A stretch of 12,970 nt of DNA from Octopus sinensis (lineage: Eukaryota). The stretch spans positions 1 to 12,970 of the forward strand of contig NW_021826450.1 of NCBI RefSeq assembly GCF_006345805.1, given 5' to 3'. Numbering within the stretch: the first letter of the stretch is position 1; every line of letters begins with the position of its first letter. Positions 4,392 to 6,735 of this stretch are shown here, in pieces. A program made the position numbers and the translations under genes. The notes beneath the pieces are model-generated. The model was not told the origin of the DNA. It did not search any database and was given only the letters and a program-made list of their open reading frames with translations.

Positions 4392-4583
4392 TAGATAGAT
4401 AGATGGACAGATAGATGGATAGATAGATAGATAGATAGATAGATAGATAGATAGATAGATAGATAGATAGATAGATAGATAGATAGATAGATAGATAGAT
4501 AGATAGATAGATAGATAGATAGATAGATAGATAGATAGATAGATAGATAGATAGATAGATAGATAGATAGATAGATAGATAGA
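4392..4583. repeat. (GATA)n microsatellite
   Basis: About 40 perfect GATA units. Confidence 0.98.
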
Positions 4584-4732
4584 TTTCTTTATTGGCCAGG
4601 CAGGGCTGAACACAGAAGGGACAAGTTGAGCTTTTCTTTTGGGGAAGAAGAGAAGGGAAAAAAGGGTCGAATTCCGATCAAAAGGGATCGTGAAAAAAAA
4701 GTGGGGACGATCAATAGGGATCGTGTATCACA
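4584..4732 (-). mobile_element. 5'-truncated 3'UTR stub of the L1/Tx1-type LINE (diverged copy)
   Basis: Homologous to 5013-5283 with shorter purine tracts. Same terminus GGCCAATAAAGAAA on minus strand, GATA/GACA arrays on both sides. Confidence 0.88.
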
Positions 4733-5010
4733 AGACAGATAGATAGATATACAGACAGACAGACGGACGGACAGACAGACAGACAGACAGACAGACAGAC
4801 AACAGACAGATAGACAGACAGAGACATAGATGGTAGATAGATAGATAGATAGATAGATAGATAGATAGAGATAGATAGAGATAGATAGATAGATAGGACA
4901 GAGAGAGAGTGAGAGATAGATAGATAGAGACAGAGAGAGTGATAGATAGATAGATAGATAGATAAAGACAGAGAGAGTGATAGATAGATAGATAAATAGA
5001 TAGATAGATA
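4733..5010. repeat. Compound (GACA)n/(GATA)n microsatellite
   Basis: Direct inspection; includes the variant unit GACAGAGAGAGTGA several times. Confidence 0.97.
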
Positions 5011-6133
5011 AGTTTCTTTATTGGCCACACAGGGCTGCACACAGATGGGACAAGTTACAAGGTAGAGCTTTTCTTTTGGGGGAGAAAAAAAAATGGTTGC
5101 GTAGGTTTTCGATCAAAAGGAATCGTAAAAGGGAAAAAGAACAAAAAAAAGAAAAAAAGGAAAAAAAAAAAAGAAAAAAAGGAAAAAAAAAAAAGAAAAA
5201 AGGGAAAAAATGAAAAGAAAAATGAAAAAAGAGGAAAAAAGGGGGAGAGGGAAAAAAACGATCAATAGGGATCGTGTATCACAGTGTCATGATGTATGGT
5301 GTAAAGGGGAAAGCAAGTAAGGTTTATCCGTGGGAAGAAAAGCCTACGAAAAAGACCACGGTAACCTTGGTCAATATTGTTATATGTTACCACATTTGTT
5401 TGCAAGTGGGTAACGCTCTGTTTTCAATTTCTGGGTTCATAGGATTATGCTCAAGGTGGCTTCGTCATTCATACGTGCCATCCTTGCTACATTCACCCAT
5501 CTTTTTTTAAAACATTCGCTAGACAAAACTTGCTTCTCTACTCTTACTTTCCTTTTCAAGTGGTACTTGAAGAAGTTGATGAGAGGTTGACCAGAGAGGA
5601 AAGTGTTTGTCTCCAATCCTTTCAGACGCGTCCACCAGATACATTCTTTCGCCATAGCCACAAGGATGATGAAAATAGCTCTTCCTTCCCGTTTGAAGGA
5701 AGGAGGCGTGACAATATTGACGATAGACTCAGCTGATAAACCGACTCGTCCCACACGTGACAGCAGTTGTTCGACATAAGCCCACAGGTCGGACACTGCA
5801 CGATTGCGTGCAGAACGGTTTCGTCGCTCTGACCGCATCTCGGGCAGATCGGCCCCATGTTTCTCGAGCCGTGTCTGTAGAGCTTATCCCGAACGGGTAA
5901 CGCTTCTCGGTAGCACTGCCAGGCCAGGGATCTCTGGAAGTTGTCCATGGGCCCTGGCCCGAAAGTCGTCCCGAACAGGCGGGTCAGGTATTCCTCGTCG
6001 ACGTCCAGGTTCGCCCCGAGCTCGTCGTCGTACCTCCCCTCCACTAATCCCCTATAGAATGCTTTGGTTGTGTTGAAGTCACTCAAGGTTGACCCAGGAC
6101 GACAGAGTTGCTTGAGAGCAACGCGACACTCGC
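5011..6133 (-). mobile_element. 5'-truncated non-LTR retrotransposon of L1/Tx1 type (about 1.12 kb)
   Basis: ORF2 C-terminus with CCHC zf-RVT motif, stop at 5437-5439, ~425-nt 3'UTR with U-rich tracts and AATAAA just before the end. GATA arrays at both junctions. Confidence 0.9.
5437..6133 (-). pseudogene. LINE ORF2 C-terminal fragment (zinc-binding zf-RVT region), frameshifted
   Basis: Frame open from the 5' junction: ECRVALKQL...LAWQCYREALPVRDKL...CPRCGQSDETVLHAIVQCP. One frameshift near 5790 leads into SDLWAYVEQLL...AKECIWWTR...FKKRW...SIIL*. Cx2C-ETxxH-x4-C and IWxxR are typical of L1/Tx1 ORF2. Confidence 0.88.
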
Positions 6134-6352
6134 AGATAGATAGGTAGGTAGGTATGTAGATAGATAGATAGATAGATAGATAGATAGATAGATAGATAGA
6201 TAGATAGATAGATAGATAGATAGAGATAGATAGATAAAGACAGAGAGAGTGATAGATAGATAGATAGATAGATAGATAGAGAGAGAGAGAGAGAGGGACA
6301 TAGATAGAGAGAGAGAGACATAGATAGAGACAGAGAGAGTGATAGATAGATA
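6134..6352. repeat. (GATA)n/(GA)n compound microsatellite
   Basis: Direct inspection; GACAGAGAGAGTGA at about 6239 and 6329. Confidence 0.97.
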
Positions 6353-6511
6353 AGTTTCTTTATTGGCCACACAGGGCTGCACACAGATGGGACAAGTTAC
6401 AAGGTAGAGCTTTTCTTTTGGGGATGAAGAGAACAAAAAACAAAAGAAAAAAAAACGGGGTGGCGTAGGTTTTCGATCAAGAGGGATCGTAAAAGGGAAG
6501 AAAAAAAGTGG
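6353..6511 (-). mobile_element. 5'-truncated 3'UTR stub of the same LINE
   Basis: 6353-6423 is identical to 5011-5081; downstream GCGTAGGTTTTCGATCAA..GG.ATCGTAAAAGGGAA is shared. Confidence 0.92.
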
Positions 6512-6735
6512 TAGATAGATAGATAGATAGATAGATAGATAGATAGATAGATAGATAGATAGATAGATAGAAAGATAGAGACAGAGAGAGTGATAGATAG
6601 ATAGATAGATAGATAGATAGATAGATAGATAGATAGATAGATAGATAGATAGATAGATAGATAGATAGATAGATAGATAGATAGATAGATAGATAGATAG
6701 ATAGATAGATAGATAGACAGATAGACAGATAGACT
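6512..6735. repeat. (GATA)n microsatellite, decaying to about 6955
   Basis: Direct inspection; GACAGAGAGAGTGA at about 6580. Confidence 0.97.

Follow-up and report, generated by a model that had tools for sequence, protein, structure and literature searches.

What has brought three copies of one LINE into a single GATA array of an octopus genome, all of them in the same orientation? The window in which this question arises is the whole stretch of DNA that we analysed, 12,970 nucleotides of Octopus sinensis (contig NW_021826450.1). From 4392 to 6733 it consists of four GATA-type tracts (4392-4583, 4733-5010, 6134-6352 and 6512-6733) interrupted by three related segments, which are 5'-truncated LINE copies of one family (n=3), all on the minus strand: copy 1 at 4584-4732, copy 2 at 5011-6133 and copy 3 at 6353-6511. 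The copies share a 3' end, GGCCAATAAAGAAA, and none of the three carries poly(A); when the whole window is searched, TTTCTTTATTGGCC is found at 4584, 5013 and 6355 only. The coordinates, strand and common 3' end given in a preliminary description of this DNA are confirmed. Its claim of one 3' terminus holds for the common end and the missing poly(A), but not to the last base, because copies 2 and 3 are two bases longer (…GAAACT) than copy 1 (…GAAA), and the 3' phase within the repeat is therefore not identical across the copies: copies 2 and 3 agree, and copy 1 is shifted. On the element strand, the 5' flanks of copies 1, 2 and 3 end in TCT, TCT and CTA respectively.

Following the plus strand, the array left of copy 1 (4392-4583, 41 pure units) is the 3' flank of that copy, a 149-nt stub of 3'UTR from a separate subfamily. 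The plus-strand spacer beyond it (4733-5010) is mixed GATA/GACA, forms the 5' flank of copy 1 and the 3' flank of copy 2, and holds three variant units of the GACAGAGAGAGT type; shortly after the junction with copy 1 it changes to GACA repeats (4750-4830). Copy 2 is a 1123-nt 5'-truncated LINE with the end of ORF2 and a 3'UTR, in which a pyrimidine-rich (T-rich) tract (5133-5241, minus strand) is expanded and is far shorter in copies 1 and 3. The GATA spacer at 6134-6352 (plus strand, two variant units) is the 5' flank of copy 2 and the 3' flank of copy 3, a 159-nt 3'UTR stub. Upstream of all three copies lies a plus-strand GATA array of 14 + 31 units with one variant unit (6512-6733), followed by a decayed GATA-like margin (6734-6860, plus strand; GATA likeness 0.63 against a background of 0.42, reached in 0/2000 shuffles). 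The exact 14-mer of the variant unit occurs at 4929, 4967, 6239, 6329 and 6580, and a longer version is found at 4897. The unit was described before as present on both sides of copies 2 and 3, which these positions bear out; none lies left of copy 1.

We turn to the identity of the element. Copy 2 retains about 230 C-terminal codons of ORF2 (5437-6131, minus strand; stop at 5437-5439), and this remnant contains a zf-RVT domain at about 5787-5930 (Pfam, E 1.7e-6). A frameshift near 5790 is a small deletion, since the contigs of the family carry extra letters there. The nearest protein, P0213, is 83% and 76% identical to the two halves of the remnant, and the named relatives come from Argonauta hians, Octopus sinensis and O. 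bimaculoides. Relatives that are 57-65% identical carry RT and zf-RVT, while full-length relatives (1145-1153 residues) have an APE endonuclease, RT and zf-RVT, as does P0011 (Exo_endo_phos, RT and zf-RVT). The best PDB match of the relatives is human L1 ORF2p (E 2e-73 and 2e-53), with R2 reaching only 3e-25 and 4e-24. A common 3' end with variable 5' truncation is a hallmark of the L1 group, and three truncation points are seen here. Judged by sequence, the element is an L1-group non-LTR retrotransposon, with endonuclease (EN) and RT seen in its relatives only.

For a finer placement, a FastTree phylogeny was built from the 181 of 215 proteins that align over at least 250 RT residues. The closest RT-bearing relatives (P0170, P0006 and P0007) fall in a clade of 30 rows with SH-like support of 100. 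Because the tree includes no named Tx1 element (20 name look-ups gave only hypothetical proteins of Argonauta and Metynnis) and RT is missing from the copy in the window, the assignment extends to the L1 group and stops short of the Tx1 clade. The earlier reading as an L1/Tx1-type LINE is supported to this extent, by zf-RVT in copy 2 and by the APE, RT and zf-RVT domains and L1 ORF2p matches of the relatives. The hairpin loop of the endonuclease has 9 residues in the nearest named relative with an EN domain, P0170 of Argonauta (56-59% identity over the C-terminus), and 11-14 in other members of the clade. According to PMC1950540, the loop has 11 residues in Tx1L and TRAS1, and the T192/S202 numbering there gives L1 a loop of 9. 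Loop length varies from 9 to 14 across the relatives and is not diagnostic. As a separate observation, the first ~43 residues of a predicted Rho GEF of O. bimaculoides (P0008, XP_014776104) are 80% identical to the zf-RVT region of the element; this N-terminus stems either from faulty annotation or from the exonisation of a LINE fragment.

The next issue is how unusual the setting of the three copies is. All six junctions had been described as GATA-type, and each of the six twelve-base flanks agrees with (GATA)n in 11 or all 12 of its bases. Among the 11,493 non-element positions in the window, 693 fit (GATA)n on the plus strand and 14 on the minus strand, which gives a chance of p=0.031 that a random site and orientation in this non-element part would fit. 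Three 5' flanks would fit by chance with p^3=2.9e-5, or 9.5e-4 when conditioned on one copy, both within the window; these values overstate genome-wide significance because the window was picked for its GATA pattern. The orientation is the same in 3/3 copies, the other ~10.6 kb of the window holds no further LINE copy, and no LINE copy lies at the listed AC, AT and AG microsatellites elsewhere in the window. The chance values show that the local arrangement of the copies in GATA is non-random, with 3/3 window copies GATA-flanked at a single locus. A short target duplication would be indistinguishable from the repeat itself. Sub-variant units do occur on both sides of copy 2 (the AAG form) and copy 3 (the GAG form), with 60-100 extra repeat bases intervening on the 5' side; a long target duplication and neighbouring units that were already alike explain them equally well.

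Do the three copies represent three insertions? Unequal exchange or template switching within the array could instead have generated copy 3, and perhaps copy 1, out of the 3' end of copy 2, so that only one or two insertions took place. The last 71 nt of copies 2 and 3 are identical, and in both the variant unit appears 12-32 nt into the 3' flank, as such a local duplication would have it. Against this, three features unite copy 3 with copy 1 and set both apart from copy 2: CCAC ahead of the T-run, a single substitution and a block of ~20 nt. Copy 1 in turn is distinguished from the other two by a gap of 8 nt, by four substitutions in the terminal part and by the last two bases. Private changes in copy 2 moreover amount to at least about 1% (the 40 difference rows listed, with 205 further, contain 9 clear sites), and at this level independent young copies would also be expected to agree over 71 bases, without any need for duplication. 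We regard the origin by local duplication as very unlikely. By their sequence differences the copies are likely separate insertions, copy 1 from another subfamily and copy 3 mixing features of both. The three insertions of the preliminary description are supported in this respect, by the subfamily differences and the clean truncation of copy 2.

That truncation can be followed in the family at large. Reads and contigs were compared over 5245-6150, and summed contig depth is not taken as copy number. At 6133, 24 (X1), 32 (X2) and 20 (X16) contigs continue with element sequence, and the protein P0213 also reads on past this position. The window turns to repeat at 6133 without microhomology, and the family contigs depart from it at their first unmatched base; the family's own 5' sequence at this point is therefore not TATC. 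Over the bin 6144-6150 the depth is 153 in X1 but 0 in both X2 and X16, the pattern that a junction at a single locus should give. With the family continuing past 6133 and the last bin covered in X1 only, copy 2 is an ordinary 5' truncation joined to GATA. Words of the family are present to more than half in 20 of the 24 listed runs, which come from 10 studies, and the family looks both young, by the private changes of copy 2 (~1%), and abundant. Groups of contigs also leave the reference at 5320 and 5434, within the 3'UTR or directly behind the stop of ORF2. This implies that there are sister subfamilies whose 3'UTRs differ and whose targets might differ as well.

Abundance allows a different account of the locus. 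A numerous and loosely targeted family may have struck a fragile or tolerated hot spot three times, without any family-wide preference, the window having been picked for the coincidence. The contigs matched to the 906 bases of 5245-6150 number 28,568, 11,047 and 8,432 per run, and in the O. vulgaris assembly simple repeats are put at 7.45% and L1-Tx1 at 56 Mb (as reported in PMC13282606). The loose ends of contigs point the same way: of the 18 listed among 1932, 8 are on the 5' side and 0/8 are GATA. However, 6/8 resume element sequence and 2/8 look like diverged relatives, with no recognisable truncation junction among them, and the list favours places with many contigs. Contigs matching human DNA were dropped, so long GATA runs were plausibly removed along with them. 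A hot spot would also leave unexplained the single orientation, the use of one repeat type of several and the empty ~10.6 kb of the window. We consider this account distinctly unlikely. A published yardstick for a microsatellite-specific LINE is that more than 20% of the copies of the family are flanked by the target (PMC4494074).

In the raw-read run X23, 0 of 12.9 million records matched 5245-6150, which makes the run uninformative on junctions. A protein alignment scan of viral, genome and metagenome contigs gave 30, 42 and 68 pattern matches, of which 0 were confirmed, and 3'-end patterns had 0 matches in the same three kinds of contigs. Three loci in viral contigs match over only 18-25 nt and are treated as chance; another viral scan gave 0. 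A search of the literature found no published primer matching the LINE 3' end.

We then ask whether the TATC repeats next to the 3' ends are target or tail. The RNA may end in (UAUC)n, either encoded or acquired by read-through, and after non-specific nicks its priming may work best where this tail pairs with the GATA strand, so that copies would accumulate in GATA arrays and in each other's tails in one orientation. Such tail-guided homing would produce an identical strand bias, with GATA on either side of a copy, and it accommodates the missing poly(A), the unfixed 3' phase and the shorter endonuclease loop of P0170; microsatellite 3' tails of RTE/Bov-B elements, with tail-assisted priming, are discussed in PMC13295347. 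The array itself argues otherwise. Beyond the 3' ends of copies 2 and 3 the variant unit is met after only 3-8 repeats. As this unit is present upstream of every copy too, the flanks in question have the look of old array and not of a fresh tail. The tract at 6512-6733 has no element behind it and is not the tail of any visible copy; it carries the variant unit of the inner spacers and fades into the margin at 6734-6860. An upstream tract without an element, a common variant unit and a decayed margin make the array look older than the insertions. The idea of one ancestral array, put forward in the preliminary description, gains support from the variant unit shared among the spacers and the upstream tract and from the decayed GATA beyond. 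Read-through of TATC into element sequence is seen in none of 171 proteins, and none is found by eye in P0213-P0215.

A second line of evidence comes from a SINE in the same window. Three SINE-like tandem units (8025-8445, minus strand) have 3' tails of ~50 nt at 8025-8071, 8214-8262 and 8399-8445 that resemble the LINE 3' end, at 82% over 50 nt (E 4.5e-8) and at 76% (E 2.9e-4); five of the six pairings are beaten by 0/2000 shuffles and one by 8. The tails end at the same AAAGAAA as the LINE and then pass into SINE sequence, without TATC. A related SINE tail without TATC speaks against tail-guided homing, and TATC is by this comparison probably the target and not part of the 3' end of the lineage. 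On balance we think it unlikely that a tail alone guides the element into GATA. The SINE with the shared tail sits outside GATA, from which it follows that related machinery inserts elsewhere too. The tandem as a whole (7903-8630, minus strand) has a 184-bp period and 3.6 copies, and its last unit has a different tail. Each of the three LINE-like tails is followed by the same internal SINE position; units 1 and 3 and units 2 and 4 are more alike, which suggests a duplicated pair, and so not three independent events. A SINE-LINE pair and SINE-into-SINE targeting at 7903-8630 are possible. A conserved 3' RNA structure common to the LINE and SINE tails is unsupported (-0.16 kcal/mol, 0/9 pairs with two-sided change), and an Rfam scan of 4300-8700 gave one chance match only.

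The window contains further repeats. A SINE-like repeat that is abundant and encloses a CA/TA microsatellite is present at 1-269, 7140-7553 and 10259-10660, 91-95% alike and in both orientations. A 166-nt direct repeat (98%; 6975-7140 and 7554-7719) brackets the ~410-nt SINE-like copy, with a T-run at 7139-7157, and far exceeds the usual length of a target duplication. At 1834-3341, nested inverted and direct repeats with arms of up to 209 nt (96%) form a large palindromic element, helitron- or MITE-like by appearance only, with a further copy at about 9540-9963. The broken reading frames at 9000-9390 finish in a cysteine-rich stretch, which we take to be reminiscent of the C-terminus of piggyBac transposase; Pfam gave no match on two pieces of this region. 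A 31-bp minisatellite (10.6 copies, 89% matches) occupies 10931-11261.

Combining these lines of evidence, we lean towards the reading that the family prefers GATA arrays because its endonuclease nicks the GATA strand and priming takes place there, and that the three copies are probably separate 5'-truncated insertions. In such a scheme, ORF2p would grip the element's own 3' end, as the missing poly(A) and the end common to a SINE suggest, and the APE domain would nick the GATA strand, by analogy with L1/Tx1 biology. All three 3' junctions would be compatible with a single T^A step, provided that one to three of the terminal bases come from the element. The freed 3'-OH would prime the cDNA, and read-through (UAUC)n RNA pairing with the nicked strand may help. 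Synthesis would halt early, twice in or just beyond the U-rich 3'UTR, and the 5' end would be linked to the remaining half of the array, where the repeat would conceal any target duplication. The six GATA-like flanks out of six, the one orientation and the chance value of about 3e-5 in the window count for nicking of GATA by the endonuclease, and there is a precedent in Tx1L, whose endonuclease is reported to nick its own target almost exclusively (PMC1950540). The single locus, the unequal 3' phase, the 9-residue loop in P0170, the 0/8 GATA among listed loose ends and the SINE with the shared tail outside GATA count against it.

A wider picture can be drawn, which we put forward as quite unlikely. 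There may be an octopod clade of target-seeking L1/Tx1-type LINEs with a shared poly(A)-less 3' handle, in which this family homes to GATA and lengthens the arrays with each insertion (by a long target duplication and, on top of it, repeats added at the 5' joint), while a sister family or SINE passenger homes to a fixed site in other SINEs. If this were true, the elements would be active builders of the microsatellite-rich genome of the octopus and would offer a set of natural APE endonucleases that differ in target. More immediately, the results point to a likely LINE partner for the octopus SINE tail, and they advise caution with octopus GATA markers, which may sit in repeated flanks. Since the family looks young and abundant, there may be intact copies from which an endonuclease could be assayed. 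Many animal genomes are rich in GATA arrays, and a GATA specificity would for that reason be of interest for targeted insertion.

Finally, we compare the family with known systems. L1-Tx1 elements of Octopus vulgaris comprise 80 families and 56 Mb, 13 of them recently active, in counts given without target analysis (PMC13282606), and the family at the GATA locus is probably one of the 80. We found no GATA/TATC-targeting Tx1 family in the literature, and the available portions of PMC3747384, PMC13295347, PMC4758252, PMC8967140, PMC10294476, PMC9115989 and PMC8869645 mention none, although the target lists of Repbase and Dfam may already include one. Microsatellite-targeting APE LINEs are already established; GATA is probably a new target for them, and no new mechanism is involved; how such retrotransposons choose their targets is described in one review as not well understood (PMC3812793).

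With Waldo, Mino, Dong and Togen the family would share the use of microsatellites as safe-harbour targets, and Dong shows that this occurs in molluscs; those elements differ in belonging to other clades and in using other repeat units. Waldo and Mino are of the R1 clade, and Dong is of R4. Their targets are (ACAY)n for Waldo, (AC)n for Mino and (TAA)n for Dong (PMC3812793), while Togen, which is NeSL-related, targets (TG)n (PMC4640811); DongBg is the Dong of a snail (PMC3812793, PMC4640811). In crocodilians, SINEU was likely moved by a Tx1-type LINE, Tx1-Mar, and the two share a target (PMC4494074). The SINE here similarly has ~50 nt of the LINE's 3' end, but its tails adjoin SINE sequence and not GATA. 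Tx1L of Xenopus, which targets the transposon Tx1D with a proven endonuclease specificity (PMC1950540), has the same L1-group ORF2 architecture and is the model for target choice set by the endonuclease; the octopod family, in contrast, is known from a C-terminal ORF2 and from relatives with loops of 9 to 14 residues.

The closest parallels are Kibi and Koshi of teleosts, in (TC)n and (TTC)n, and crocodilian Tx1 families in (TTCC)n/(TTTC)n, as described in PMC4494074 and PMC3812793, which bear out the TC and TTC targets given for Kibi and Koshi in the preliminary description. As in those systems, an APE-type L1-group LINE lies inside a microsatellite, with several copies in the same repeat type. 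The differences are the target, since (GATA/TATC)n has purines and pyrimidines on both strands, the octopod host, and the single locus. Based on this one locus, the family is likely GATA-preferring in the manner of Kibi and Koshi; if confirmed, GATA/TATC and a cephalopod lineage would join the short list of microsatellite-targeting APE retrotransposons.
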